From a virus (Duplodnaviria; Caudoviricetes), in IMG/VR virus record IMGVR_UViG_3300031576_000049, positions 1 to 57,453 of that record: 57,453 nt of DNA. The stretch is one strand, 5' to 3'. Within the stretch, counting starts at the first letter, position 1. Every line of letters starts with the position of its first letter. Positions 11,945-57,453 of this stretch are shown here, in pieces. The notes under the pieces were generated by a model. That model saw only the letters and a list, made by a program, of their open reading frames with translations, ran no database searches and was not told the origin of the DNA. Made by a program: the position numbers and the translations under genes.

Positions 11945-12392
11945 CGGTGGGGGCGGTTCAGCCTTGCGGTTTCGCAGGTTGTCGGGAAGCGGCTCACATG
12001 GGATCGGCTCACCGGCAAGGCGGATTGCGAGCACATCAGATTATAAAGGCTCTGTCGCACCAATACCAGCAGCAGGGCAGAGGCAAGCGCCCGAAGGGAG
12101 AGGCTAAAAAGCTAAAGGCCGTGGATTCCACGGCCCGGCTCTATGAAGGCATCACCCTGAGTGGATTCTTGGCGGAGTCCTCGGGTGAATAGTCACATGC
12201 AACGTGACAGGAGAAGTGTGTCATGCTGCTGGTCCAAAAGTCAAGATCGAGAAAAGAGGAAGCTAGGCTCAAGAAGGAACGCGAGAGGCGGAGGCAGGCG
12301 AAGCGAATCGCATCCTGAGAGCCACGGATCGGCTCAGCCTATCGTTCCACCATGGCCCGCTACCGGGATGAGTTGTCAAGTAATTTGTTACC
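11945..12392 (+). mobile_element. Decayed IS1595-family right-end remnant
   Basis: Encodes RFSLAVSQVVGKRLTWDRLTGK (the intact transposase has RFSLALSQIVGKRLTWNRLTGK). Ends in TTGTCAAGTAATTTGTTACC, resembling the IS terminal repeat. Confidence 0.8.
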
Positions 12393-13668
12393 CAAACATG
12401 GCCAACGGGGGCACACGGCCAAGGGCCATCCGGCAGTAATCGTATTTCAGGTCCATGACTACGGCCTGACGCCCCATCAGGAAGGCGACATCCGCTACGG
12501 TTCCGGACCCGCCAAAGGGGTCAAGGACAAGACCGTGTTCGGGACAACCAGCGGCGATGCAACGGCGGACCAGTTCACGGGGGAAAGTAGCGAAGTGCGC
12601 GCCGTCGAAAGCATCCGTCGGGATGGTCCAGACGGTGCGCGCGTTGCGGGTTAGGCCGAAAGGGGAATCATGGTCGGCTCCAGCCGCCCTGGCATCGTGC
12701 ATATTCTGTAAAAGCCGCCGGCCCGACGACTGGGGATCCTGCCCACTCCATTTGCCAGCGTATCTACCAACCGCGTCTTGCTTGCGAATCTCTCTCTCGC
12801 TCGGATGTTGCGGGTCCCGATCCTGGTGTATTCGGCTGTTGCGCCCCTCGCGCCCGCGCTGCTGCCCGCCGTGTTGCTGTTCCTTTGGCCTCCCGTCCAT
12901 CTCCCAGGCCCCTTGCGAACCGTACAGCCGGCGGGTGTCGGCGGTTACGCACGGCTCGGCAATCGCGTCGGCGTCGAAGTAGTACCGCTCGGACTTCGTC
13001 AGCAGGAACACGTGCTCGTGGCTGCTGGTGGGCCGGTCCTGCACGCTCTCCGGCATCGGGTTCGGCTTCGACCATATAATGTCAGAACGCAAATACCAAC
13101 CGTCCGCTTGTAGCGCAAAGGCCACGCGCCAGGGAATACCGCAGAGATCTTTAGGCTTGAGGCCGGGTGGCGTGCCAGGTCGTAATCCATCCGCGAAGTT
13201 GTCGTCTTTGAACGCGAGGTGAGGTTTTGATTGGCCGGGATCGCGTGTGCTGCGACCACCGCTTGTGTACGAGTCCCCTAGATTCAACCACAATGTTCCG
13301 TCATCCTGCAGCACCCGCCGGACCCCACGGAGCACATCGACGATGTGCGCGACATAAAGTTCCAGAGTCGGCTCCAGGCCGAGCGAACCACGCCAAGCAC
13401 CGCACTTGGGGCAGAATGCGCCTTGCCGTGCAGCTTTGATTTTAGCTGCCGGGTTGCCACCGGTGGCCCATGCGAGTGAATCTCGTCTGCTATCGCGGGG
13501 CTGCCACTTTTCAGCGTCCCATTCGTGCTGGCAGCACCCCGGTTCCCCATCCCAAACCGTCGGCTCGGCCCCATAATCCCGTAGCCCCCAGTACGGCGGC
13601 GAGGTTATGCAGCAATGCATCGACTCGTCCGGAAGCGGAATCGCCCGAGCGTCAGCGTTCAGGATCAT
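12388..13668 (-). CDS. Site-specific DNA methyltransferase, N4C/N6A beta class
   Basis: TSPPYW near the N-terminus, DIIWSKPNPMPES, HFATFP, DPFGGSGT near the C-terminus. Confidence 0.95.
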   Translation of the reverse strand: MILNADARAIPLPDESMHCCITSPPYWGLRDYGAEPTVWDGEPGCCQHEWDAEKWQPRDSRRDSLAWATGGNPAAKIKAARQGAFCPKCGAWRGSLGLEPTLELYVAHIVDVLRGVRRVLQDDGTLWLNLGDSYTSGGRSTRDPGQSKPHLAFKDDNFADGLRPGTPPGLKPKDLCGIPWRVAFALQADGWYLRSDIIWSKPNPMPESVQDRPTSSHEHVFLLTKSERYYFDADAIAEPCVTADTRRLYGSQGAWEMDGRPKEQQHGGQQRGREGRNSRIHQDRDPQHPSEREIRKQDAVGRYAGKWSGQDPQSSGRRLLQNMHDARAAGADHDSPFGLTRNARTVWTIPTDAFDGAHFATFPRELVRRCIAAGCPEHGLVLDPFGGSGTVADVAFLMGRQAVVMDLKYDYCRMALGRVPPLAMFG

Positions 13669-44651: not shown

Positions 44652-47414
44652 TTATCGTACTGCGCTCATCTCGGCCCAGTTTGACCCGGTCTTCACGCCC
44701 ACGGCGCACCATAAACCACCAGGCGCGATCACCGGGTCAATAAGCGTTGGGTTCGGTGCTTCCATCGCCGCCTTGATCGTCGATGCCGCCTCTTCCGCCA
44801 GGGGTGCTAGGCACTCGAAAACCAAACTGTCGTGAACGTCGTTAATCAGGCTGGCGCGCTCGGTCCACCCCTCGGCCGCCAGCTTCAGCATGGCGTCCTT
44901 CTTGATGCCGAAGGCGTCATTCGCCGGCAGAAACGCGATCGCCGCCTCGGAGTCGTCGCCAAACTCGGTTCGGCCCGACGCCGGTTCGTGGTGAATCACG
45001 TCCCAGAACCAGCGGATGTACCCGAAGCGCGAGGTCAGATAACCTTGCCGATGAGCGACGCGCCGGATCTGGTCGCGCCACGCCGCTGTTCGTGGAAACA
45101 GGCCGTCCAACATGTCGATGGTCGCTTTAGCTTCTTTCGGCGAGCTGAAAGACTCGCGGTTCATGTCATAGAGCTTTCGAGCGCCCATGCCAAAGCCATA
45201 GCCGAGAACGGCGCGCTTCGCCCGGTAGTCGCGGATGAATCCCCAGCACCGACCCTCGTGTTTCTCCGCGTTTGAGTGCCTGCAATCTCCGCCGCACGAG
45301 CGGATCCACTCCAGGCGGTCGCCCAAATCGTCGTCCCCGAGGTCGAGCGCGACCGGCTGGCCGATGAGGTGCGCCGTCAGAAAGCTATGGATGTCGAGCC
45401 TCGCTAGGCGCATGTAGTCGGCGTCCTGCGCCTCGAAGCCCAGGGTCAGCGCGTGGAAGCTTTTGTAGTCAAACTCCAATAGAATATAACCAGGCCGAGC
45501 CTCGATTATCCGCCGGAAGGAGCTGGCCAACCGAGTGTGGTGCGGCGCGTTCTGGACGTTGGGATCGCGCGAGGAAAACTGGCCGGTGCCAGGCGCAAAG
45601 TAGAAAGTCGAATGCACGCGGCCGTCACGCCCTGGGCGCCAGCCCTCTAGAAACGTGCCCTTCATCGTGCCGAATTCGCGGTCTTCTAGGATCAGGCCGT
45701 AAAACGGATCGCTGGTCTTGCGCGCGAGACGTTCTAACTCAGTTTTCGCCGTGGTGACGGTGCCGTCCCGCATCCTGGGCGTCGGGTGGCCACGGTGGCT
45801 GATGTAGGCCAAAACCTGCTGCCAACTCTCGGGGTTGAATGGCTCCAAACGCACCCAACGCCGACGGTTGCCGAGATCAGCGAGGAGATCCATATTTGTC
45901 GCTGGCCTTGGAAAATTCCGCAACTTGTAGACCACCCCAGCGGGCGATTCTATGCGTTCGACCGCCGGGTTGGCGATCACAGCCTGGCGGACGATGGCCG
46001 GCGGCCGGTCGTAGCCTTCCGGCTTGTGAACATGGCGGCACTCGTCAGGCGCGCAGGCCGTAATCTCCGCCCTGACGACGGCCTGGCGCTCGTCGATTTC
46101 ACCGGCGAAAATTGTGTGGCGCTCAATGCTGACGGGAATGCCTCGCACCGACATGCGGTCCAGTTCCGGCGCCAATCCGACGATGTGCCGCTCGTATGCG
46201 GCGTACAAGCCCCGCCGCCGGAGATCGTCGAAGATCCGGCGGGCGATCCAGTGCAGCACATCCACATCGCAGATCCCATACCGCTCGGGGTAGGATCCGC
46301 GCCAATGCTTCCACGGGAACGGAAAGCCGTAGAAGGATGCGGCGAACTGCAAGCGCGCCGGAATGTCTGGCTGGAGGTGGTGGAAGGCCTCCCAGAGATC
46401 GTCGGAACGCCCGACGATGTCAAAGCCCTGGACGCGCAGCCGGGGATTGTCATTCCGGCGGCCGAACCAGGTGTATTTCGGGTTGGGCAGGGCTAGAATC
46501 CGTCGCGCAATCTCAATATACTCGCCAGACCAAGGCAGGTAGATGCCGGTGCAGGGACGGAGCGAGAATTGAATGCTATAGATCACATCCTCCGTCAGGA
46601 CGCTTTGAACGACGGTGTCATCATCCGGCGTCTCCGTCGCCCGAGGATGCTCTAGGTCGAAGGCGAGCGGCGTCTCCGGCGCGGCCTCGACCTCCCTGAG
46701 GAATGAACGAGCATCGTCGAGCGATGGGCGCTCCACGCAGTTGGTGAAGTACGTGCTGCCTTCAGGGTGTAGAATATAATCGGCGGCGGTTCCGGCGGCG
46801 ACCTGCACGGCGAATTGCAGATCCCGAATCATCACGCCCAGCAGGCTCATGCCGCCTCCCCCTGCTGCCGACGGCGTCTTGGCACCGGTCTCAGCGTCTT
46901 TCCGACGCGACCCCCGGCGCAGGTAGGAGGGATGGAACGTCGGTATGATCGGGCCAAACTCGCTGGGCAATACGTAGCCGCGCAGGTCGCTGACCTTGCG
47001 GTCGGGCCCACTCATGCCGGTGAGCGCCTTTAGCGCCACGTTGCCCAGGGCGAGGATCGCTTTCGGCTTGAACTCTTCGACAACTCGGCGGAAGTGGACA
47101 CGGCAATGCCAGATCGCTTCCTCCTCGTAGGATTCGCCCTCTAATTGATTGCCCGGCGGCTGACAGGCGACCACATTCCAGAGACGGAAGTGGTCACGGC
47201 CGAACCCGGCCCGCCGGAAGGCTCGCTCCAACACCGATCCAGCCTCGGCGTAGGGCCTGAAGGGCAGGCCGTCGCGACGCTCGTTCAGGCCTAACGCTTC
47301 GCCGACCACCAGCACCCCAGTGGTGCCTAAGCCATCAGGCTGGCTGAACCCATTGGGATCGAGGTCGAATAGGGGACAACCATAACATTCAGCTGGTTTG
47401 GGCAAGACCGCCAT
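44652..47414 (-). CDS. polA: Family A DNA polymerase with N-terminal family-4 uracil-DNA glycosylase and a 3'-5' exonuclease domain
   Basis: UDG: CYGCPL, VGEALG, NVVACQPPGN, FHPSYL. Exonuclease: AFDLE, YGICD. Polymerase: FDYKSFH, AKRAVLGYGFG, VHDSLVFE. Confidence 0.92.
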   Translation of the reverse strand: MAVLPKPAECYGCPLFDLDPNGFSQPDGLGTTGVLVVGEALGLNERRDGLPFRPYAEAGSVLERAFRRAGFGRDHFRLWNVVACQPPGNQLEGESYEEEAIWHCRVHFRRVVEEFKPKAILALGNVALKALTGMSGPDRKVSDLRGYVLPSEFGPIIPTFHPSYLRRGSRRKDAETGAKTPSAAGGGGMSLLGVMIRDLQFAVQVAAGTAADYILHPEGSTYFTNCVERPSLDDARSFLREVEAAPETPLAFDLEHPRATETPDDDTVVQSVLTEDVIYSIQFSLRPCTGIYLPWSGEYIEIARRILALPNPKYTWFGRRNDNPRLRVQGFDIVGRSDDLWEAFHHLQPDIPARLQFAASFYGFPFPWKHWRGSYPERYGICDVDVLHWIARRIFDDLRRRGLYAAYERHIVGLAPELDRMSVRGIPVSIERHTIFAGEIDERQAVVRAEITACAPDECRHVHKPEGYDRPPAIVRQAVIANPAVERIESPAGVVYKLRNFPRPATNMDLLADLGNRRRWVRLEPFNPESWQQVLAYISHRGHPTPRMRDGTVTTAKTELERLARKTSDPFYGLILEDREFGTMKGTFLEGWRPGRDGRVHSTFYFAPGTGQFSSRDPNVQNAPHHTRLASSFRRIIEARPGYILLEFDYKSFHALTLGFEAQDADYMRLARLDIHSFLTAHLIGQPVALDLGDDDLGDRLEWIRSCGGDCRHSNAEKHEGRCWGFIRDYRAKRAVLGYGFGMGARKLYDMNRESFSSPKEAKATIDMLDGLFPRTAAWRDQIRRVAHRQGYLTSRFGYIRWFWDVIHHEPASGRTEFGDDSEAAIAFLPANDAFGIKKDAMLKLAAEGWTERASLINDVHDSLVFECLAPLAEEAASTIKAAMEAPNPTLIDPVIAPGGLWCAVGVKTGSNWAEMSAVR

Positions 47415-47610: not shown

Positions 47611-48249
47611 TCAGAATGGTACATCATCGAACGACGCCGCCGAAGATGCGCCGCCTGGCGTGATGCCGGCGTTGCTGGGCTTGTAGGCGACGATGCGGGC
47701 CTGCGCCGCTACCTCGCCCTTGCAGGTCGGGCATTCGCCGACCGCCCGGTGGCCGCCATCGGCGGTGGCTGGAAACTGCCGAGCGCCCTTCATGGTTTCT
47801 CCGCCGCAGTTCTGGCAATAGCCCCGCCACTTCACTGTGATTGAGACCTGGGACTGGCTGAGCAAGGCCGCATGCAGGGCGCGCGCCAACTCAAGGGCTT
47901 TGGTACGAGCCTCGACCGTACGCCCCAAAGCCTTCAAGACGCCGACCATCCGGCAGGTGCCGGAGAACGGCGAGATCAGGGTGTCCACGAAGTTATCGAA
48001 CACAGGACGGTCATCCCACCGCTCGCCGGGTGCCTGAATGCGCGCTTCGATGTAGGCGGTAATGAACGGTCGGCCGTCCTTGGCGGTGCCGCGTTTGAAT
48101 CCCTGGGGACCGAGCAGGAGCACGGCTAGGTGATCGCCCTCCGGCGGCGGTGGCGGAAAGGCGAAGGCTTCGGCCTGTGGGTCGAACTCGACCTCCTCAG
48201 AAGTAAGCGAGAGGTCATTGATGTCAATTGCTTCTAGCTGTTGAGGCAT
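47611..48249 (-). CDS. Putative single-stranded DNA-binding protein
   Basis: Acidic C-terminal tail FDDVPF, CQNC...CPTC, downstream of the ATPase. Confidence 0.6.
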   Translation of the reverse strand: MPQQLEAIDINDLSLTSEEVEFDPQAEAFAFPPPPPEGDHLAVLLLGPQGFKRGTAKDGRPFITAYIEARIQAPGERWDDRPVFDNFVDTLISPFSGTCRMVGVLKALGRTVEARTKALELARALHAALLSQSQVSITVKWRGYCQNCGGETMKGARQFPATADGGHRAVGECPTCKGEVAAQARIVAYKPSNAGITPGGASSAASFDDVPF

Positions 48250-48267: not shown

Positions 48268-49206
48268 TTAACCGCTTGGTGTTGGTGGCTTCACGCCGAG
48301 TCGGCCGGCGGCTTCGACGGCCAAGTCGTCTTCAAACGCCAAGAATGCGTCTAACCCGTTCTGCATCTCGCTGCCCACGATGCGCGGCGTCAGGAACCCG
48401 CCAGGCCAGCGTTTCAAGAGCTCGCCGTGCATCTCCGCCGGCACCCGCGCTTTTGCGCTGTAGAAAACGCCAGTTATGGGGTCCGGATGCCGGACGAAAT
48501 ACATGCGGCCGAAACTCACCGGTACGCCTTTCTCCGCCGTCACGGGATCGACCGATTCGCCAACCCTTACCGTGAACGCATCGAAATGCAGCACGTCGCC
48601 AAACCATTTGTGGGCCCGGCCAATCGCTTTACGTCCAGGAATGTCGGGGCCATAGATCGGTTTTCGCTGATTGTCCTCGCCCGCGGCCTCATGCGCCGTC
48701 CACAGCACACGCTCCACAGGCAGGCGACTGAAGTTTATTACCAGATCGTGGCACTCCTCCTGAACAAAGCCGAAGTACGACATGTTGGAACCGTAAAACG
48801 TCTCCTCCCGCTCAACGAAGGTGTAGTTTGGATCCTGCGAGAGGCTGATGCCTTTGGCTCGCAAGCCAGCCAACAGCAGTTCGCCGTTTGAGGTCAGCCC
48901 TTCGATAGCGTAACCGCCGACGCCGCGCAATACATCGCCCGGGGAAGGCGCCAGCCTGCCATCGAAAATCCAGTCGCCACGACTCAGCTTCCGGAGCAGT
49001 CCGATAGGTTCTTTGGCACCGACGATTGACAAAACCTGGATGATTCCGGCATCGATGTAATGCTGGATCGGATCGGTCCCGCCGGGGTCGGCCGTAATAA
49101 GTCTGGTCGGTTTGCCGGTTTTCTCATGGATGTACCGGGCGAACCGTCCGACCTGGGTGGTCTTGCCGACGCCCGATTCGCCAAACAGCATGGTGGTGCG
49201 GTTCAT
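48268..49206 (-). CDS. AAA_24/Sak4-like ATPase (recombinase)
   Basis: GESGVGKT, YAIEGLT, WTAHE, YGPDIPG. Confidence 0.8.
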   Translation of the reverse strand: MNRTTMLFGESGVGKTTQVGRFARYIHEKTGKPTRLITADPGGTDPIQHYIDAGIIQVLSIVGAKEPIGLLRKLSRGDWIFDGRLAPSPGDVLRGVGGYAIEGLTSNGELLLAGLRAKGISLSQDPNYTFVEREETFYGSNMSYFGFVQEECHDLVINFSRLPVERVLWTAHEAAGEDNQRKPIYGPDIPGRKAIGRAHKWFGDVLHFDAFTVRVGESVDPVTAEKGVPVSFGRMYFVRHPDPITGVFYSAKARVPAEMHGELLKRWPGGFLTPRIVGSEMQNGLDAFLAFEDDLAVEAAGRLGVKPPTPSG

Positions 49207-49243: not shown

Positions 49244-50701
49244 TTATCCTAAACAGCCATGTCCGGTGATTTCGTGTTCCGGTTGGTGGTGCGGTTCCCG
49301 CCATCGCCAGGCTTCGGCGTCATCCTCCGGCCGTACTTGATAATCGGGGACTGGCCCCCAGCATAGCGTTTCATAGTACGGGCATCGCGAGGGCCACAGA
49401 CAGGATTGACGATGCTGCGCGAACAGATTGTTGAGATCATACCGAACGCGGGAACTGTTGCCATCGTGGATGGCTTGGTTGAGAATGCTGGAGGAATCGG
49501 CGATGGCGTTTTCCTGCGCTCTGGCCTGCGCCCACCAGTCCTGGACTTCATCGGCGACGCGAAAATACGGTGCTGGCCGGACAATCTGCCGGCTAAGACA
49601 CGGGCCGGCATCGGGCTGCACCACACCGGCTTCGAGCATATCGAGCCACCCTTTGACGCCGCCAACCTCAGCCGATTGCCAGACCGAAAACGGCTCCCAC
49701 CCTTTGCCCAGGCGATGACCGACGCCCCCAGGGCAACGTCGGCCTTGCCCGTTGATGTGTTGGGCAACGCATTCCCAGCGGTAGGACCAGGCGTATTCCC
49801 AGGCGCTTTCGCTCCCGACGGCGGCGATGGGCCGACGCCAGCCGCGCACCAGAGGCGACCATTGCACCCATTGACCGGAATCCTCGGGCCATTCCCGGCG
49901 ATCGCCTTTCAGCAGATAAATCATCTGGACGCCCATTACTACGTCGGTGGGCGTAAGGGCCAAGGCGCGGCAGTGTTTTTCGCTGTCGAGCAATTCGGTG
50001 AATTTCGCCTGAAGGACGGTCAAGTCAGGATCGGGCTGCCGCAAAATGTCTTGAAAATTCTCCCGCTGTCGGAGGGCAACTGATTTGGCCGAAGTCCGTC
50101 GCTCCAGCAGATCGTTTTCAAAGGCAAGCAGTTCGGCGATGCCTTGGTCGTCGTGTCGCGCTTCGGCCTCCATACGTGCTGACCAGTGACTGCCTGTCGT
50201 CTTCCAAGAGCCGATATAATAATCCCCGGTTGAACGTTGGCGCAGCCCGGCGTCGGGGCGCGACATCAACCTGAGATCCAGGCTGTCTCCGGCGACCGTA
50301 AGAGGCAGCGCCAGTTCGCGTTCGGTTTCCAGGATCTCAAACTCGTCGGTAAGTCCAGGCAGCACTTCCAGGGCGAAAAGCCGGACCAGCCCTTCGACCA
50401 TCGCAACCTGTTCCTCGATGTCGAGCACGCCGCCCTCGGTGTGGATGCCTCGGTTTTCGGCCTGGCGCTGGAAGAATTCGGTTGCGAAACGGACGGCCAT
50501 ATCGGTGGGTGACAAGACGAGCAATTGGTGAATGCCCTCATGAACGGCGAGGCCGACGGTCAGGGCGAGATCGGTCGAGCGCGGTACGACACCACGACCC
50601 TTGTACTCGTACTCCCACCAGCGGCGGCGCGGGCACCGCCGGTAAGTTACGATTCGGGAGCGATCGGTTAGGCGCAAATTAATCACCCTGCTTGGCGCCA
50701 C
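49244..50701 (-). CDS. PD-(D/E)XK (Cas4/AddB-like) exonuclease
   Basis: CPRRRWWEY, GLAVHEG, ETERE, SRPD, SWKT, C-terminal CLWPSRCPYYETLC. The start is uncertain. Confidence 0.8.
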   Translation of the reverse strand: MAPSRVINLRLTDRSRIVTYRRCPRRRWWEYEYKGRGVVPRSTDLALTVGLAVHEGIHQLLVLSPTDMAVRFATEFFQRQAENRGIHTEGGVLDIEEQVAMVEGLVRLFALEVLPGLTDEFEILETERELALPLTVAGDSLDLRLMSRPDAGLRQRSTGDYYIGSWKTTGSHWSARMEAEARHDDQGIAELLAFENDLLERRTSAKSVALRQRENFQDILRQPDPDLTVLQAKFTELLDSEKHCRALALTPTDVVMGVQMIYLLKGDRREWPEDSGQWVQWSPLVRGWRRPIAAVGSESAWEYAWSYRWECVAQHINGQGRRCPGGVGHRLGKGWEPFSVWQSAEVGGVKGWLDMLEAGVVQPDAGPCLSRQIVRPAPYFRVADEVQDWWAQARAQENAIADSSSILNQAIHDGNSSRVRYDLNNLFAQHRQSCLWPSRCPYYETLCWGPVPDYQVRPEDDAEAWRWREPHHQPEHEITGHGCLG

Positions 50702-50948
50702 TGGTCTTCCACTTAATATAGGCTTCGACCTGTTGTCTAGATCCGAAACAGGCAACGGGAGCCTCATTGCATAAAAATGAGACGATCTCGCCCATTCGTT
50801 CCCTGTTCTCGGAATTCGCCCAGTTGAAAGCCCCTATAAAATTGTTCTCTAAGACGCAGTACAGAAAATAGCCGGGCCGGATCCCATTCTCGATGTACTG
50901 TCGCATACCGCTGCGCAAACCAACTGGCAGCAGATTGTAATTTAACAC
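50679..50948 (-). CDS. Hypothetical phage protein
   Basis: YIENGIRPGYFLYCVLENN...NEAPVACFGS; lower GC. Confidence 0.7.
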   Translation of the reverse strand: MLNYNLLPVGLRSGMRQYIENGIRPGYFLYCVLENNFIGAFNWANSENRERMGEIVSFLCNEAPVACFGSRQQVEAYIKWKTSGAKQGD

Positions 50949-51611: not shown

Positions 51612-52799
51612 TCAGGGCGGGCCGAGGGCCGTCGCCTTTAGGCTGGCGAACCTTGACCCGAACCGGTAAATAGCCTCCGCCCGATCCTGCTGGTCCACTA
51701 CCTGCATCAATACCAGCTCTTCCAAGCGCCGGGTGACGGTGGCTGGCGGCAGGCCGGTCATCCGCAGGATCTCGCCCCGGGAAGTTTCCGAACCGTCCGG
51801 GATGGCTCCGATGATGGCCGCCGTCGAACGTGGGATGGAATCCAGGGCCACCCGCCGGGCCAAGGCAAAATCCTCTATCGCGACCATCGGCCGACGGTTG
51901 ATGGCGGCGTGGGCGCGGGCGATCTGCCAGAGCACGCTGGCGATGCGGCTGGGCGTTTCCGCCTCCGGCACTTCCTCAATGGTTCGCCGGGCATCATTCT
52001 CGCGGTGGGCGCGCACGCGCAGCCAAGCTATCAGCTCAGCGAGGGCAGAAAGCTGGTCGCTTGCAGGCGTTGATTGGCGGGGAACCTCAACCAGACCCGC
52101 CGGCCGGACCCAATCAACCACCAGTCGGCGTAACTCTGAGCGGATTTTCCGTTCTTCGCCCAACTGCCCAATGGCCATGCGCCCAGCATCCTGCGGCGGC
52201 GGACTGCGCCAGTGGACGGCCACGAAGCGGTCGCCCAGGCTGCGGACGGCGGCCCAGTATCGCTCATAATCTGGCGTGGTGGCGGCGATCAGCGTGATCT
52301 TGCCCTGCCACAATAGCTTCCGCGACGCGCCCGTGTCCCTGGGCAGTTCGCCGTCATAGATTTCCCGGAGATTCGCCAGGATCTGCTGTCGGTCATGGGG
52401 ATGTGCGCTAAGCAGGGTGCCGAAATCCTTCATCAACCAGATTCGACTCGGCCCCGAGCGATGGAGCAGGCTATATTTGTTTTTGCCCTGGTCAAAGGCC
52501 GACAGGAAGGCCCGAGGAGTCAGAACGGAGACTGGCTCGGTGTCCGGCAGGCTGCGGAGGCCGCCGATGGCAATCTCGCTCTTGCCAGATCCGGGCGTAC
52601 CAACCACCAAGAGCCAGACAGGCTTCTCAGCCAGCCAATAGTGGCCGACGGTGGCGGCGATCACGACCCTAAGGCCTTCCAGATCGGGTCGGGCAAACCA
52701 CCGCGTCAGGTGATTCTCCAGGGCTTGCCAGCGCTCGGCGGCGGCGATCTCAGCCCCCGTTACGACGGTGGTGGAAGGTGACATGGAGGCGTGGATCAA
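51612..52799 (-). CDS. P-loop ATPase, putative replicative helicase with C-terminal winged HTH
   Basis: GTPGSGKS, WLMKDFG, LREIYDG, LGDRF, SRGEILRMTGLPPATVTRRLEEL. Confidence 0.7.
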   Translation of the reverse strand: MIHASMSPSTTVVTGAEIAAAERWQALENHLTRWFARPDLEGLRVVIAATVGHYWLAEKPVWLLVVGTPGSGKSEIAIGGLRSLPDTEPVSVLTPRAFLSAFDQGKNKYSLLHRSGPSRIWLMKDFGTLLSAHPHDRQQILANLREIYDGELPRDTGASRKLLWQGKITLIAATTPDYERYWAAVRSLGDRFVAVHWRSPPPQDAGRMAIGQLGEERKIRSELRRLVVDWVRPAGLVEVPRQSTPASDQLSALAELIAWLRVRAHRENDARRTIEEVPEAETPSRIASVLWQIARAHAAINRRPMVAIEDFALARRVALDSIPRSTAAIIGAIPDGSETSRGEILRMTGLPPATVTRRLEELVLMQVVDQQDRAEAIYRFGSRFASLKATALGPP

Positions 52800-52886: not shown

Positions 52887-54170
52887 TCAGTTCAGAACTT
52901 CGACGGCAAACTGGCGGATCGACCAGGTGTGGCCGGCGACGGCGGCCGACCACTGAATGGTGACTTCCAGCAGCCGGCTGACGGTGGTATCAAGCGATTC
53001 GACGGCGGTGTTAGGATCGGTCTTGAAGACGGAATTGATGAAAGCGTGCGGCAACTGCGATTCGGCGTCGCCAGTCGCGGAAATCGTTTTGGCGATGACC
53101 AGCCACTCTGCGGACCACTGCACGTTGGTGACGGCGGCCGCCGTCGAGACAACCGAATGCCAAGTGACGCCGGCCACTTTAAACCGCAACGTGGCCGTGT
53201 CGGTGCCGTTGGCCGTCGAATAGACGCCGGTGGCGGTGACACGGAAGGCACGATTCGCAGCCAGAGTGTTGGCCGGCACGGTATAAGAGTTCAGGGCCGT
53301 CTCGGTCACGGTGTTGGCGACCGTTGTCACTGTGTAGTCGGCCTTGGCCGTGCCGTGCAGGGGAACGTTGTCGGTCAAGCGTTTGCCCTTCGGTATGCCG
53401 GCGGAAGACACAGAGCCGACGACGACGGCGGCCGAATCGGTCCACTGCTGGAGATCGCCGGTCTGGGACGCCAAGCCCTGGACGGTAGCGGCGACCGAGG
53501 CGGCGGTGGCGGGCTTGGCCGTCAACCCGCCGGTCGTGGTGGCGGCGCCGGCGGCCGTCACCAGGAATTTCGCGGCGCCAACCTCCAGACTGTTGGTGCA
53601 GGTGTTTCCCAGTAGGCACAGCCGCTTGTTGGAGTTGTCCCAGAAGAAATTGGTGTTGTCCTGGAGGTAGACGCCGGAAGAACCAGTGACGAACGGGACG
53701 GAACCCGCCGTGAAGACTGTGGTTGTCCCGGTTCCACCCTCACCGGCGCGCACCGGAAAGCCTTGGCCTGGCAGGTAGCCGCGGTAGTTGGCGCTGAGAT
53801 TTGGCGAGACGCCGCCAGTGAGCGCCGTCAGATTTGCGGTTAGAAATAAATGATTGGCGTCAGCCACTGAGAATGTCCCGGAGGATGTGCAGGTTTGCGT
53901 CGATTCGGTGGACCAACTCACCGCGTCGTTGGACTTCTCGATCAGCAAGGTGCAAGTGGCGGGCGCGCCGACCGTCGTCCACTGGAACACATGGTTGGTG
54001 ATGCCGATGTTGCGAACGTCGGCGAAGATCAGGCTACGGCCGGTCGCGGTCTGCTGCTTGAAGAGTTGAGCGTAGATGGCGGACGTGCCGGAGACGGCCG
54101 AGGTCTGCGCCAGGCAGGCGGCGGCGAAGGCCCCGATCAGCGCAAGGATACAGAAGAGGCGGCGGATCAT
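52887..54170 (-). CDS. Signal-peptide protein with fibre-like beta-rich body
   Basis: MIRRLFCILALIGAFAAACLA; GGTG...AGSVPF...NFFWDNSNKRL fibre-type motif. Confidence 0.7.
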   Translation of the reverse strand: MIRRLFCILALIGAFAAACLAQTSAVSGTSAIYAQLFKQQTATGRSLIFADVRNIGITNHVFQWTTVGAPATCTLLIEKSNDAVSWSTESTQTCTSSGTFSVADANHLFLTANLTALTGGVSPNLSANYRGYLPGQGFPVRAGEGGTGTTTVFTAGSVPFVTGSSGVYLQDNTNFFWDNSNKRLCLLGNTCTNSLEVGAAKFLVTAAGAATTTGGLTAKPATAASVAATVQGLASQTGDLQQWTDSAAVVVGSVSSAGIPKGKRLTDNVPLHGTAKADYTVTTVANTVTETALNSYTVPANTLAANRAFRVTATGVYSTANGTDTATLRFKVAGVTWHSVVSTAAAVTNVQWSAEWLVIAKTISATGDAESQLPHAFINSVFKTDPNTAVESLDTTVSRLLEVTIQWSAAVAGHTWSIRQFAVEVLN

Positions 54171-54783: not shown

Positions 54784-54873
54784 TGGCGGAGGAAGGGGGA
54801 TTCGAACCCCCGAGGGCCTTTCGACCCTATCAGTTTTCGGGACTGCCGCCTTCAACCGCTCGGCCATTCCTCC
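54784..54873 (-). tRNA. tRNA-Ser(CGA)
   Basis: GGAGGAA acceptor, D-arm, anticodon loop CCCGAAA, long variable arm, TTCGAAT T-loop, G73 and encoded CCA; TAAAAT -10 just upstream. Confidence 0.9.
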
Positions 54874-55528: not shown

Positions 55529-57406
55529 ATGCCGCTTTACCTGCCGCACCACGATGTCTCGCTTGGCGGCAACACCGCCGGCGTTTTGGCGCTAATTTCC
55601 TCCGGCACGCTCTTTCTGGCCGGCGGAAATAATATTACGCTCAGCCAGGCCGGGAATTCCGTCACCATCTCCGGCGGGGCAGGCGGAGGCGGCGGCGGAT
55701 CATTCTCGGCGGGTATCTCGACCGGCGGGAATACCAGCGGCACGTCTGGAACCGTTTCTGGGCAGCTTGTCTTCGCCGGCGGCAACAACATCACCCTCAG
55801 CCAGTCGGTGGCTGGCGCATCGGCCACCATCACGGTTTCAGCCTTTAATCAGACCGCGCCGGTGGTGTCAAACGCGATCCAGGCGGTGGCCTCCGCGACT
55901 GGTTCAGGCACGAATACTAGCCGATTTGCCGCCGATGACCACGCGCATGAGGGCATTTTCTCGGCCGGCGTCTCGACCGGGGGGAACACCATCGGCAACA
56001 CCTCGGTAGGCCCTGGCCAGATCGTATTGGCCGGCGGCAACAACATCACGTTGTCGCAAGCGACGGCGGCCGGCAAGCTGATGTCGGTCACCATTTCCGC
56101 GTTCAACCAGACGGCGCCCGTGGTCGGCGCCGCCATCCAGGATGTGGCGACGGCGACGGCGTCGGGCACGGCCACCTCGCAGTTCGCCGCGCACGATCAC
56201 GCCCATCGCGGGCAGTTTGGGTGGGACGTAAATGGCGTGGCCTCAACCTTTGTGGGAACGCAACAATTGAGTGCCGGCAACCTCATGTCGATCGCGACCG
56301 GCGGCGGAACGACGCGGGGGACGGCGCAATTCATCAACCTGCTGTCGTCGGCGACCACCGCGTCGGCGGTGACCAGCGCCAACGTGGTCGGCGCCATGGC
56401 CTCCCGATTCGCCCTGGAGGCCCACCAGCACGCCGGGGTCGGCTTGGCCGGCGTATCGACCGGGGGAAACACGTCGGGCTCGACGGCAGTCTTGGCTGGC
56501 AGGCTGGTCCTGGCGGGCGGCGCCAACATCACGCTGTCGCAATCGACAGCGGCCGACAACGCCATGACCGTCACCATTTCTGGCGGTGCCGGCGGCGGCG
56601 GCGCGTTTTCGGCGGGGGTCTCGACCGGCGGCAACACCAGCGGCACAACCGGCACGGTCAGCCAGCAGCTTGTGCTGGTCGGCGGCAATAACATCACGCT
56701 GTCGCAGTCGGTCAACGGCGGCTCAGCGACGGTGACGATTTCCGGCGCGGCGGAGGCGGCGAATCCGAATTTCTGGATGAACCTAGACGATTGGGCCGTC
56801 ACCCGAGCCACGTCCAACGCGTCCCTCTACATCTTTCCGCTGGCCCCACAAGGGCCAATGCCCTTCAACATCACGGCCTCCACGCTGATGATGGAAATGT
56901 CTGGATCCATCACGGCGACCGCTAACTCCTCGTCTCACAGCTTCACGGTGTCGCTCGGAATCTATACGGCGAACAACTCGACGCAATTGGGCCTGTTGAA
57001 CAGCGCGTCGTCGAGCTGGGCATTCGGGGCGGCCACCTCAAACAGCGCCCTCTACCACGGCGTGCGCTTCCTGACATTTCATTCCAGCCTGTTCTCCGCG
57101 CCAGTCTCCTTCGTCAAGGGCAGCAATTACTGGTTCGCGTACTGGGTCCAGTCATCGAACTACGCGGTGTCCTGGGTCTTCGCGCACGGCACGAATCTGG
57201 CGCCGGGCCAAGCCCGGTCAGGCACCCTCGGGTCGAGTATAGTGACCAGCAGCCGCATGAACATGCTGCCGTTCGGTCCATGCCTCTATTCGGCGAGCTT
57301 CACGACGGCGCTACCGACGGCGCTGGCTCAAAGCAATATGTCTTTCAACGTCGGCAACCCTCTGGCGGCGAAAGTTGTCCTGATGAACTTGGCGTCGAGC
57401 TTCTGA
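55529..57406 (+). CDS. Tail fibre-like Ser/Thr/Gly-rich repeat protein
   Basis: Five GG(N/A)NITLSQ repeats, three FAxxxHxH motifs, distinct C-terminal head domain. Confidence 0.75.
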   Translation: MPLYLPHHDVSLGGNTAGVLALISSGTLFLAGGNNITLSQAGNSVTISGGAGGGGGGSFSAGISTGGNTSGTSGTVSGQLVFAGGNNITLSQSVAGASATITVSAFNQTAPVVSNAIQAVASATGSGTNTSRFAADDHAHEGIFSAGVSTGGNTIGNTSVGPGQIVLAGGNNITLSQATAAGKLMSVTISAFNQTAPVVGAAIQDVATATASGTATSQFAAHDHAHRGQFGWDVNGVASTFVGTQQLSAGNLMSIATGGGTTRGTAQFINLLSSATTASAVTSANVVGAMASRFALEAHQHAGVGLAGVSTGGNTSGSTAVLAGRLVLAGGANITLSQSTAADNAMTVTISGGAGGGGAFSAGVSTGGNTSGTTGTVSQQLVLVGGNNITLSQSVNGGSATVTISGAAEAANPNFWMNLDDWAVTRATSNASLYIFPLAPQGPMPFNITASTLMMEMSGSITATANSSSHSFTVSLGIYTANNSTQLGLLNSASSSWAFGAATSNSALYHGVRFLTFHSSLFSAPVSFVKGSNYWFAYWVQSSNYAVSWVFAHGTNLAPGQARSGTLGSSIVTSSRMNMLPFGPCLYSASFTTALPTALAQSNMSFNVGNPLAAKVVLMNLASSF

Positions 57407-57453
57407 TGAAGCCCGAGATCATCGTCGATCCAGGATGGGCGGGCCGGCACAAC
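57327..57453. repeat. Terminal direct repeat, copy 2
   Basis: Identical to 1..127. Confidence 0.97.

Follow-up and report, generated by a model that had tools for sequence, protein, structure and literature searches.

The window analysed here, the whole 57,453-nt stretch of phage record IMGVR_UViG_3300031576_000049, encodes on its minus strand a 920-residue protein (P0001) in which a uracil-DNA glycosylase (UDG), a 3′-5′ exonuclease and a family A DNA polymerase (PolA) are fused. Most likely, this gene supplies the phage with a replicative DNA polymerase of its own, a working proofreading replicase that belongs to a new UDG-PolA subfamily; this subfamily is large, has so far not been described and comes from uncultured tailed phages. 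In its polymerase active site, Arg668 and Glu710 of E. coli Pol I are replaced by Gln612 and His654. To the reading in which this Gln/His pair provides a different structural solution, in a primer-dependent, dNTP-specific replicative polymerase with a UDG that would search the template for uracil, we assign a probability of about 0.6.

Domain architecture of the fusion protein

The open reading frame and its domains are located as follows.

44652..47414, minus strand: whole open reading frame, UDG + 3′-5′ exonuclease + family A DNA polymerase fusion, 920 aa (Pfam and AF2)
46899..47396, minus strand: family 4 UDG domain, residues 7-172 (phmmer to 1l9g/1vk2)
46215..46727, minus strand: 3′-5′ exonuclease domain, residues ~230-400 (alignment columns, census, Foldseek)
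44655..45857, minus strand: polymerase domain, residues ~520-920 (Pfam, phmmer, Foldseek)

Both the UDG (1.4e-19) and the DNA_pol_A (6.1e-29) Pfam models matched above their cut-offs, the latter (PF00476) with 101.6 bits against a curated cut-off of 34.3, and the DNA polymerase family phrog_17 was matched at 2.6e-51. Foldseek aligned the AF2 model (pLDDT 90.9, pTM 0.87) to the Klenow fragment (1kfs) and the Bst large fragment with E ~1e-23 and TM by target of 0.76-0.81, the match spanning the exonuclease and polymerase domains of both. The best structure matches in BFVD were full-length UDG-PolAs, including N4-like ones (TMq 0.60-0.66). The C-terminus lies 58 residues past the motif C aspartate, with no C-terminal extension. 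P0001 carries the only polymerase family that Pfam detected among the scanned open reading frames of this complete genome.

Residues of the polymerase active site

An earlier note on this DNA, which dealt with positions 44652-45620 (approximately residues 599-920, a span containing every motif named there), had described a concerted rewrite of the active site. We assigned residue equivalences with MAFFT L-INS-i, including E. coli PolA from MG1655; in a phmmer search against the PDB, the motifs paired with TGRLSS, DYSQIE, AKTINFGVLYG and VHDE of Taq. Re-translation of the nucleotide coordinates agreed with the protein.

45570..45587, minus strand: TGQFSS ('TGR' motif), starting at residue 610; Q612 corresponds to R668 (phmmer, MAFFT)
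45453..45470, minus strand: motif A DYKSFH, starting at 649; D649 corresponds to the catalytic D705, H654 to the steric gate E710
45189..45221, minus strand: motif B AKRAVLGYGFG, starting at 732; K733 corresponds to K758, L737 to F762, F741 to Y766
44919..44942, minus strand: motif 6 AIAFLPAN, starting at 825; A827 corresponds to N845, A831 to Q849, N832 to G850
44826..44837, minus strand: motif C VHDS, starting at 860; H861 corresponds to H881, D862 to D882, S863 to E883

The MAFFT alignment did not restore the canonical residues, and all seven replacements that had been called by eye (R668Q, E710H, F762L, Y766F, N845A, Q849A and E883S) were confirmed against Taq and E. coli Pol I. E710 is the steric gate against rNTPs, and R668 and Q849 read the minor groove; 11/11 reference PolAs keep all three residues. 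In P0001, the Arg of the TGR motif is absent and replaced by Gln612, the steric-gate Glu at position A2 by His654, and the Tyr at position B4 of motif B by Phe741, the last being the same substitution as in DpoZ. Motif 6 is the least certain equivalence, HMMER placing two one-residue gaps there; that A831 corresponds to Q849 is supported because 37/291 relatives have Gln in this column. The D705, K758 and D882 equivalents and the exonuclease motifs had been reported as retained, which alignment and census bear out and extend to H881. The family A hallmarks D649, H861, D862 and K733 are thus all present in P0001, and are kept in 277-291 of ~291 relatives.

Conservation among relatives and clade status

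Among the best 120 homologues, Q612, D649, H654, K733, H861 and D862 are each found in 120/120. A wider census covered 300 relatives, with the sequences aligned at each column as denominators. Here, too, the replacement residues Q612 (283/290) and H654 (291/292) are nearly invariant, as are D649 (290/292), H861 (290/291), D862 (291/291) and, to a lesser degree, K733 (277/291). Around them the pocket is more variable: L737 is kept in 256/291 (His in 24, and Cys also occurs at the 762 position) and F741 in 229/291 (Leu 27, Asn 25, Tyr 10), A827 in 265/291, A831 in 220/291 (Gln in 37/291, non-Gln in 254/291) and N832 in 226/291, while position 863 is occupied by Ser (157), Ala (78), Asp (30) or Glu (20) in 291 sequences. 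Position 651, two residues after the catalytic Asp, is basic in 224/292 (189 Lys, 35 Arg). The exonuclease residues are conserved throughout (ExoI D253 261/262 and E255 261/262; ExoII D322 260/263; ExoIII Y379 263/265 and D383 261/265) and form invariant columns in alignment A2. We counted 75 distinct patterns over eight sites in 289 sequences, and the 25 commonest all start with QH. As judged from the alignments, such a near-invariant Gln/His pair amid variable pocket neighbours is a signature of functional constraint, and the catalytic core is intact and under selection.

The concerted rewrite holds in part. R668Q and E710H define the clade, but F762L, Y766F and E883S/A are known in active PolAs (phiVC8 DpoZ, N4), and the loss of Q849, seen here as A831, is not universal, Gln being kept in 37/291 members. 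Since these other changes are either found in active polymerases or not general, we regard the Gln/His pair, on the residue comparisons, as the group-defining novelty.

In the tree, 59 sampled members lie on one side of a branch and the 11 reference PolAs on the other (SH-aLRT 100, stem 0.95). This single branch, the R668/E710/Q849 of every reference and a tblastn identity of P0001 to deposited phage PolAs of at most ~27% uphold the proposal of a distinct polymerase clade. Megablast of 10 kb around the polymerase gene found no match among deposited phages. We estimate the group size at 839 representatives of 50%-identity clusters (E ≤ 1e-30), which is an upper bound; the searches list the best 120-150 matches, and any relatives still carrying R/E would lie beyond these. 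A clade polymerase HMM matched 70/72 rows, Bacillus phage HSE3 gp133 not being among them, and a scan of genome contigs gave 2 loci only, both in MAG contigs, from which no host assignment followed. A literature search by the motif strings of P0001 returned unrelated papers only.

R668 and E710 belong to the set of residues by which primer-terminus checking and ribonucleotide exclusion are defined in family A polymerases. A natural group of this size in which both are exchanged, while every sign of purifying selection persists, is a natural experiment in checkpoint design and provides fresh starting points for polymerase engineering. For comparison, the 2023 reclassification of PolAs describes its crucial residues as strictly conserved in all 19 clusters (PMC10201439).

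The fused uracil-DNA glycosylase

The N-terminal family 4 UDG, which the earlier note does not mention, is the main context for interpreting P0001. It contains four cysteines (residues 10, 13, 84 and 104), motif A GEALG (38-42) and motif B HPSYL (161-165). By phmmer it matched the family 4 UDG of T. maritima (TM0511; 1l9g/1vk2) with E 5e-16, in an alignment that pairs CxxC, GE..G, the third and fourth Cys and HPSYL with their counterparts in P0001. The UDG superfamily model PF03167 scored 71 bits (cut-off 24.3), and TIGR00758 65.9 bits, which is under its cut-off of 125.3. Among relatives, the same residues are largely conserved (C10 190/196, C13 203/203, E39 222/236, C84 213/245, C104 234/247, H161 246/257). 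With its catalytic and Fe-S residues intact, the domain looks catalytically competent.

Genome and replication neighbourhood

The 57-kb genome is complete (127-bp terminal repeat, CheckV 100%). The polymerase gene has the following neighbours.

47611..48249, minus strand: SSB-like (DUF669-like) protein, 212 aa, two CxxC pairs (neighbourhood and Atlas structure match)
48268..49206, minus strand: Sak4-like P-loop ATPase, 312 aa (phrog_124 2.3e-05; Walker A at residue 9)
49244..50767, minus strand: PD-(D/E)XK nuclease, 507 aa (Pfam PDDEXK_1 4.2e-06)
51612..52799, minus strand: AAA+ (MCM-like) ATPase with C-terminal winged helix (Walker A at residue 67; weak Pfam HTH_24)

A replication module comprising a Cas4-like nuclease, a Sak4-like ATPase, an SSB-like protein and PIF1-like or AAA+ helicases is conserved across relatives. 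Homologues of the 212-aa protein lie close to the polymerase in 26/41 related loci, and the Sak4-like ATPase in 24/41; the Atlas structure match of the former to DUF669 (TM 0.53) is a lead only. When the C-termini of relatives were compared, the tip ...FDDVPF was seen on the protein of this genome only. The 507-aa nuclease is the sole gene besides the polymerase common to 6/6 compared genomes. Across 20 sequences its C456, C462 and C469 never vary and C45 hardly does, and one N-terminal plus three C-terminal cysteines fit a Cas4/AddB-like Fe-S arrangement. A primase hidden in the C-terminal half of this protein was considered and rejected, as the Cas4/AddB-type Fe-S cysteines span the whole chain. 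The Atlas structure of the AAA+ ATPase matched, with TM 0.86-0.88, the C-terminal halves of ~700-aa phage proteins from clusters with Toprim_2 or Prim-Pol; its AF2 model (pLDDT 69) gave Foldseek matches to MCM2-7 and archaeal MCM (E 1e-7, TMq 0.40-0.48). These models make it a candidate replicative helicase without a primase domain. No counterpart of the relatives' PIF1-like and VapE/DUF5906 helicases was found in the window by tblastn (E ≤ 0.01), and phmmer of three large neighbouring ORFs against the PDB gave no usable match. The ORFs at 52887-54170 and 55529-57406 were dropped as replication candidates; their sequences look like repetitive fibre-like proteins.

The earlier remark that no primase is visible holds for the known families: a Pfam scan of the ORFs detected none, and six-frame searches of the genome gave no match to Prim-Pol, Toprim_2, DNAG_N, DNA_primase_S or Zn_ribbon_DnaG. 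Prim-Pol and Toprim_2 were likewise found in 0/5 near-complete relatives, the other three in 0/4. Divergent primases may evade Pfam models. A phmmer search of six-frame ORFs with the primase, helicase, SSB, exonuclease and Sak4 proteins of N4 and phiVC8 yielded nothing at E ≤ 1, but it also missed the window's own Sak4-like protein and is therefore insensitive. The missing families, here and in the complete relatives searched, leave room for unusual initiation, and the group flags phage replication modules without a recognisable primase. Nucleotide-modification and dNTP-metabolism genes were absent from the Pfam matches of the 63 ORFs, where only an N6/N4 DNA methyltransferase and, weakly, a SAM-methyltransferase were matched. 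Among the relatives' neighbour proteins (146), one DpdA and two ThyX were present.

Interpretation of the Gln/His pair

We infer that the Gln/His pair, instead of marking a loss of function, provides a different structural solution. Ring residues (Tyr or Phe) block the 2′-OH in B-, Y- and RT-type polymerases; His654 would still exclude it. Gln612 would retain one hydrogen-bond donor, and the basic residue two past the catalytic Asp (K651 in P0001) may replace the lost positive charge. P0001 is accordingly predicted to be primer-dependent and dNTP-specific. Substitutions of R668 and E710 in Klenow strongly lower activity or fidelity, so the pair need not be a neutral alternative. That some of the remaining changes are compatible with a working enzyme is indicated by the counterparts of F762L, Y766F and S/A883 in the active phiVC8 DpoZ and N4 DNAP, and a Taq Tyr-to-Phe mutant is described as active in vivo (PMC8599892).

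The loss of two residues that are universal in the 11 reference PolAs could also be taken as degeneration of a dead or decaying polymerase domain. We consider this very improbable: identical replacements recur in 283-291 of ~290 sequences (roughly 30-58% identity), none of the catalytic Asp, His and Lys residues varies in the best 120 homologues, the ORF is intact, the AF2 model is confident, and no second polymerase was found in the complete genome. The sugar pocket of the clade, being unusually variable at 762 (Leu/His/Cys) and 766 (Phe/Leu/Asn/Tyr), could equally reflect changed selectivity. The lineage might have rebuilt its sugar and minor-groove checkpoint (Q668, H710, variable 762/766) such that His at the gate and Phe766 loosen sugar discrimination and permit rNTP use or self-started chains. 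This would explain how complete genomes manage without a known primase family, and the five families unmatched here and in the relatives, together with an AAA+ candidate that looks like the helicase part of primase-helicase fusions yet has no primase domain, are in its favour. It nevertheless seems to us improbable, only slightly less so than outright decay. PolA variants that accept rNTPs have small gate residues (Gly or Ala), than which His is bulkier, and we know of no family A polymerase that primes de novo. A host primase could serve instead, given the ...FDDVPF tip on the phage SSB-like protein, which we take to resemble the partner-binding tip of bacterial SSB. Initiation could also depend on recombination through the conserved nuclease and Sak4-like annealing module, and a primase could be too divergent for Pfam.

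Relaxed minor-groove and geometric checking might alternatively serve the bypass of abasic sites made by the enzyme's own UDG, or of other lesions, which would make P0001 a replicase with built-in translesion capacity. Among the competing explanations we give this one the most weight, while still considering it unlikely. Both minor-groove readers are altered in most members (Gln at 668 in 283/290, non-Gln at 849 in 254/291), the UDG appears competent from its residues, and SP15-like UDG-PolAs were found in experiments to excise template dU and to bypass the abasic site with dA (PMC13697223). If those bypassers keep canonical R668, E710 and Q849, however, rewiring is not required, and the references, including the UDG-PolAs of N4, DSS3phi2 and MW202554, keep all three. 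Moreover, Q849 persists in 37/291 clade members, the retained proofreading exonuclease opposes extension from aberrant termini, and PolX and an ATP-dependent ligase for finishing repair were found in 0/5 genomes, although the PolX control was weak (0/14 control genomes above cut-off). Adaptation to a non-canonical nucleotide pool, or to genome modification (hypermodified thymidine, dU, deazapurines, 2-aminoadenine), is improbable, clearly more so than lesion bypass. The UDG-PolA phages SPO1, SP-10, SP-15 and YerA41 are reported to have modified thymidine (PMC10201439, PMC13697223). L762 together with F766 characterises motif B in phiVC8 DpoZ, and DpdA and ThyX occur among the relatives' neighbour proteins. 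Against these points, no nucleotide-metabolism or base-modification gene was found in the 63 ORFs of the complete genome, methyltransferase matches aside, nor was a PurZ-like gene, the NCBIfam DpoZ model scores far below its cut-off, and the assembly comes from ordinary metagenome data. The C5-pyrimidine and 7-deazapurine modifications that are known lie on the major-groove side, whereas the residues altered here read the sugar and the minor groove. A primer-dependent, dNTP-specific replicase with an alternative checkpoint remains our preferred reading.

Comparison with known systems

P0001 shares with Klenow, Taq and Bst the fold, D705, D882, H881, K758 and the exonuclease signature DxE...D...YxxxD; it differs in ~18% identity, in the seven substitutions from R668Q to E883S and in an N-terminal UDG that takes the place of a 5′ nuclease. 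The DpoZ of phiVC8 (PDB 7PBK; PMC8599892) agrees with P0001 at three sites: B3 (F762) is Leu, B4 (Y766) is Phe, and Ser follows HD. Unlike P0001, it keeps R668, E710 and Q849 and lacks a UDG domain, and its phage carries PurZ and a primase. P0001 falls outside this group, with 14.6 bits for NCBIfam phage_DpoZ against a cut-off of 500 and no adenylosuccinate-synthetase family (PurZ/Z-cluster) among the 63 ORFs; conversely, the clade polymerase HMM scored only 25.5 bits on DpoZ.

Of 50,697 deposited phage records, the uncultured podovirus ctLwi270 (MW202554.1) covers the query best (81%), and no other reference lies closer in the tree (SH-aLRT 84, long branch). Like P0001 it combines UDG, exonuclease and polymerase and has HDS in motif C, but identity is 24.9%, the protein is annotated as two CDS, and R668 (TLRLSS), E710 (DKNQLE), Y762, Y766 and Q849 are present.

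N4-like UDG-PolAs (cluster 17 of Czernecki et al. 2023, PMC10201439), here compared as N4 gp39 and DSS3phi2 orf52, are described with the same UDG-like, exonuclease and PolA order in ~860-920 aa. N4 also resembles P0001 in a motif C without Glu after HD (HDA) and in a module with exonuclease, Sak4-like protein and SSB. These enzymes nevertheless keep R668, E710, F762, Y766 and Q849, and their UDG is described as having lost its catalytic residues (PMC10201439), whereas E39, H161 and the four Cys are conserved in the P0001 group. They gave partial tblastn matches only (E ~3e-4), N4 and DSS3phi2 form a branch separate from the P0001 clade, and N4 encodes a primase and a helicase. With its retained UDG residues, Leu at B3 and separate branch, P0001 lies outside cluster 17.

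SP15-like UDG-PolAs (YerA41, phiLo) have been studied by Missoury et al. (bioRxiv 10.1101/2025.03.26.645540; NAR 2026, PMC13697223) and, like P0001, combine an intact-looking family 4 UDG with a proofreading PolA. A match in SP-15 was rejected as that phage's polymerase, being a stand-alone UDG. The published descriptions set the SP15-like enzymes apart from P0001 (920 aa, no C-terminal extension): they are given 1175-1306 aa, two large inserts and a further ~80-aa domain at the C-terminus (bioRxiv 10.1101/2025.03.26.645540; PMC13697223), a Phe at B3 (F930 in phiLo, F1055 in YerA41), and phages with PolX, ligase and hypermodified T (PMC13697223), while DNA_ligase_A_M and the PolX palm family were found in 0/5 genomes of the P0001 group, with a weak PolX control. 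By analogy, their template-scanning uracil excision is the best available model for what the UDG of P0001 would do, and we place the P0001 group as the fourth among UDG-fused phage replicases.

Domain architecture of the polymerase

The polymerase is encoded by a single ORF, whose product we denote P0001:

44652-47414, minus strand, polymerase ORF, 2,763 nt, 920 aa, with the substituted motifs in the 3' third

P0001 combines a uracil-DNA glycosylase (UDG), a 3'-5' exonuclease and a family A polymerase (PolA) in one chain. This assignment follows from the domain matches together with model superpositions. Two Pfam domains scored above their cut-offs, the UDG superfamily (residues 32-173, 1.4e-19) and DNA_pol_A (6.1e-29), and the PHROGs family is phrog_17, a generic phage DNA polymerase (2.6e-51). 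An AlphaFold2 model built with 49 homologues was confident (pLDDT 90.9, pTM 0.87); its exonuclease and polymerase part superposes with Klenow and the Bst large fragment (Foldseek E ~1e-23, TM by target 0.76-0.81, ~18% identity), and its best matches in a viral model library were full-length UDG-fused phage PolAs (TMq 0.60-0.66, identity ≤17%). The exonuclease motifs, described as retained in the earlier note, are indeed present as D253/E255, D322 and Y379/D383. Between motifs A and B lies a Cys-rich insertion with three cysteines (residues 705-722, window ~45249-45302), which is found in the closest homologues only and is not conserved across the clade.

Active-site substitutions

The earlier note had listed, from an alignment by eye, a series of substitutions in the polymerase active site, every one of which was borne out by computed alignments. 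A phmmer search against PDB chains paired TGQFSS, DYKSFH, AKRAVLGYGFG and VHDS with TGRLSS, DYSQIE, AKTINFGVLYG and VHDE of Taq. In a MAFFT L-INS-i alignment with MG1655 PolA, P0001 carries R668Q, E710H, F762L, Y766F, N845A, Q849A (together with G850N) and E883S (E. coli Pol I numbering), and keeps the equivalents of D705, K758, H881 and D882. The least secure equivalence is that of motif 6, where HMMER places two one-residue gaps; pairing of A831 with Q849 is nevertheless supported by the occurrence of Gln in the A831 column of 37/291 relatives. R728, the invariant arginine upstream of K733 (276/291), is one residue off register with respect to R754, and we claim no equivalence between the two. 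The observation of a substituted PolA is thus real and reproducible.

Conservation of the Gln/His pair

Of 8,000 candidates scored in a word-indexed search, 307 were returned as matches. The best 120 of these share 41-58% identity with P0001 over the polymerase region, and most of them are UDG and PolA proteins from metagenome contigs of up to ~100 kb. When 1.84 billion cluster representatives were searched exhaustively with HMMER, 839 matched at E ≤ 1e-30, and the best 150 of these all had E ≤ 4e-123. Q612 and H654, which occupy the positions of the TGR arginine and the steric gate, were present in 120/120 of the best 120 sequences, as were D649, K733, H861 and D862.

We extended the count to a census of 300 sequences, comprising 252 database proteins and 48 ORFs of 41 IMG/VR loci, with a few duplicates. 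The loci had been retrieved by patterns that included the His motif and are therefore biased towards His; the 252 database proteins are free of that selection. The pair was conserved (H654 291/292, Q612 283/290), as were the catalytic aspartates (D649 290/292, D862 291/291). The remaining pocket is variable around the fixed pair, with 75 site patterns among 289 sequences: L737 was found in 256/291, F741 in 229/291, A827 in 265/291, A831 in 220/291 and N832 in 226/291, and position 863 was occupied by Ser (157), Ala (78), Asp (30) or Glu (20).

A tree of 70 polymerase domains (IQ-TREE quick, LG+G4) was calculated from 11 references and 59 clade rows, the latter made up of one in five of the 252 database proteins, taken at regular intervals, together with 8 ORFs of the loci that diverge most; T7 gp5 and HSE3 gp133 were left out because they gave no match to the clade polymerase HMM. 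A branch of length 0.95 (SH-aLRT 100) separates all 59 clade rows from the references, the closest of which is the MW202554 polymerase, itself on a long branch (SH-aLRT 84). R668, E710 and Q849 are present in 11/11 references. Taken together, the Gln at the TGR arginine and the His at the steric gate mark out a new subfamily of family A polymerases fused to a UDG.

Variations in gene organization were seen among the relatives. In the IMG/VR loci L032, L034, L038, L039, L042, L045 and L047 the polymerase is split into two ORFs, one for UDG and exonuclease (~375-390 aa) and one for the polymerase (~490-620 aa), with a 244-aa ORF between them in L042. Among the database homologues, P0026 (1398 aa) contains an intein family; lengths of up to 1717 aa occur among the others. 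HNH endonucleases account for 3/146 neighbour proteins of relatives.

Genome context

The window is a complete virus record, rated 100% complete, with an exact 127-bp direct repeat at 1-127 and 57327-57453. This repeat stems from overlapping assembly ends, the genome being either circular or terminally redundant. Recognised genes include those for a large terminase, a portal, a tape-measure-like protein, a peptidase_M15 lysin, a sigma-70 region 4 protein and a PIN domain, in addition to the following:

12388-13668, minus strand, N6/N4 DNA methyltransferase (PF01555, 1.7e-39); no other DNA-modifying enzyme was recognised in the genome
14173-15138, plus strand, IS1595-family transposase (DDE_Tnp_IS1595, 1e-43, and a zinc ribbon), inside the phage genome
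47611-48249, minus strand, 212-aa SSB-like (DUF669-like) protein, adjoining the polymerase on the same strand
48268-49206, minus strand, Sak4-like P-loop ATPase, near the polymerase on the same strand
49244-50767, minus strand, PD-(D/E)XK nuclease, 507 aa, near the polymerase on the same strand
51612-52799, minus strand, AAA+/MCM-like ATPase, 395 aa, with Walker A and a C-terminal winged helix
52887-54170, minus strand, and 55529-57406, plus strand, two large Gly/Thr/Ser-rich repetitive proteins matching no family
54784-54873, minus strand, tRNA-Ser (anticodon CGA); no other tRNA was found

Across the window, G+C is lowest (0.558) at 14-16 kb, where the transposase lies. The two Gly/Thr/Ser-rich proteins are probably fibre or surface proteins; that at 52887-54170 has a signal-peptide-like N-terminal hydrophobic stretch.

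Within 10 kb of the polymerase, homologues of the 212-aa protein were found in 26/41 related loci, of the Sak4-like ATPase in 24/41 and of the nuclease in 22/41. Four cysteines, one N-terminal and three C-terminal, are retained in the nuclease family in a Cas4/AddB-like pattern. A PIF1-like helicase lies within the same distance in 19/41 loci; none was found in the window. When six whole genomes were compared, the polymerase and the Cas4-like nuclease were the only genes common to 6/6, and the structural genes that the five complete relatives (G001-G005) share among themselves differ from those of the window. The replication module is thus mosaic and moves among different phage types.

Primase and initiation of replication

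Pfam searches of the 63 ORFs of the window revealed no primase, helicase or nucleotide-metabolism family. Six-frame searches for Prim-Pol and Toprim_2 were negative in the window (0/1) and in relatives that are 96-100% complete (0/5), as were those for DNAG_N, DNA_primase_S and Zn_ribbon_DnaG in the window and four relatives (0/5); positive controls behaved as expected in both cases. The remark in the earlier note that no primase is visible thus holds, and applies to the relatives as well.

The 395-aa ATPase is a candidate AAA+ replicative helicase that lacks a primase domain. Its Atlas model matches the C-terminal halves of ~700-aa phage proteins of Toprim_2 or Prim-Pol clusters (TM 0.86-0.88), which correspond to the helicase portions of primase-helicase fusions, and a moderate AF2 model (pLDDT 69) matches MCM2-7 and archaeal MCM (E 1e-7, TMq 0.40-0.48). 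For the 212-aa protein, a weak resemblance to DUF669 (TM 0.53) provides a lead only. Its disordered tail ends in ...FDDVPF, which we take to resemble the partner-recruiting C-terminal tip of bacterial SSB; the tail occurs in 0/26 homologues of the related loci.

Ordinary routes of initiation are more likely than self-priming by the PolA: a host primase, recombination-dependent initiation via the nuclease and Sak4-like module, or a divergent primase that escapes the models.

The UDG domain and polymerase function

The UDG domain of P0001, which the earlier note leaves unmentioned, aligns with the Thermotoga family 4 UDG over 163 residues (E 5e-16), with the CxxC pair, the GE..G motif A, the third and fourth cysteines and the HPSYL motif B in register. 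These residues are kept in the clade (C10 190/196, C13 203/203, E39 222/236, C84 213/245, C104 234/247, H161 246/257), which sets it apart from the N4-like UDG-PolAs, whose UDG is reported to be degenerate (PMC10201439), and brings it closer to the enzymes of the SPO1-like and SP15-like groups. In the latter, cryo-EM and assays show that template dU is removed by the UDG before it reaches the active site, and that the abasic site left behind is bypassed by the polymerase via dA insertion (PMC13697223). P0001 differs from the SP15-like group in having neither its inserts nor its C-terminal domain. Searches of the window genome and four relatives found no ATP-dependent ligase (0/5) and no PolX palm family (0/5, with a weak positive control).

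We favour, at a probability of roughly 0.6, a reading in which P0001 is a working replicase that proofreads, is specific for dNTPs and scans the template with its UDG, and in which Gln/His stands in for Arg/Glu as a compensated alternative. The basic residue at 651 (K or R in 224/292) may contribute to this compensation. The main rival, which we consider unlikely, is that the enzyme has changed in function and come to tolerate abasic sites or other aberrant termini. For the use of modified nucleotides, gene content provides no positive support, and we regard it as improbable; ribonucleotide use or self-priming, likewise without positive support from gene content, is the least probable of these readings.

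Comparison with known polymerases

Literature searches with motif strings returned unrelated papers only, and those on the steric-gate histidine, family A, phage and UDG-PolA yielded no description of a Gln/His PolA variant; members of the clade may already be included in the figures (motif logos of Figure 3) or supplements (UDG-PolA map of Supplementary Figure S2) of PMC10201439. On steric-gate His and UDG-PolA, only Czernecki 2023, Missoury 2025/2026 and one Carin-5 paper were found. Nasko 2018 (PMC6302109) mentions neither uracil nor 668 nor 710, and no NCBIfam model reached its cut-off against P0001.

Several of the P0001 substitutions already have precedent in active enzymes. Like P0001, phiVC8 DpoZ, an active polymerase of solved structure, carries Leu and Phe at 762 and 766 and a Ser following the HD dyad; exactly these departures are listed by its authors in PMC8599892, where it is also noted that a Taq Tyr-to-Phe mutant complements in vivo. 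Leu at 762 is a well-known virioplankton variant (PMC10201439), and motif C reads HDA in N4 gp39 and in its roseophage relative. Gln at 668 or His at 710, on the other hand, was found in none of the references compared, and the PolA reclassification (PMC10201439) reports strict conservation of crucial residues across all 19 clusters.
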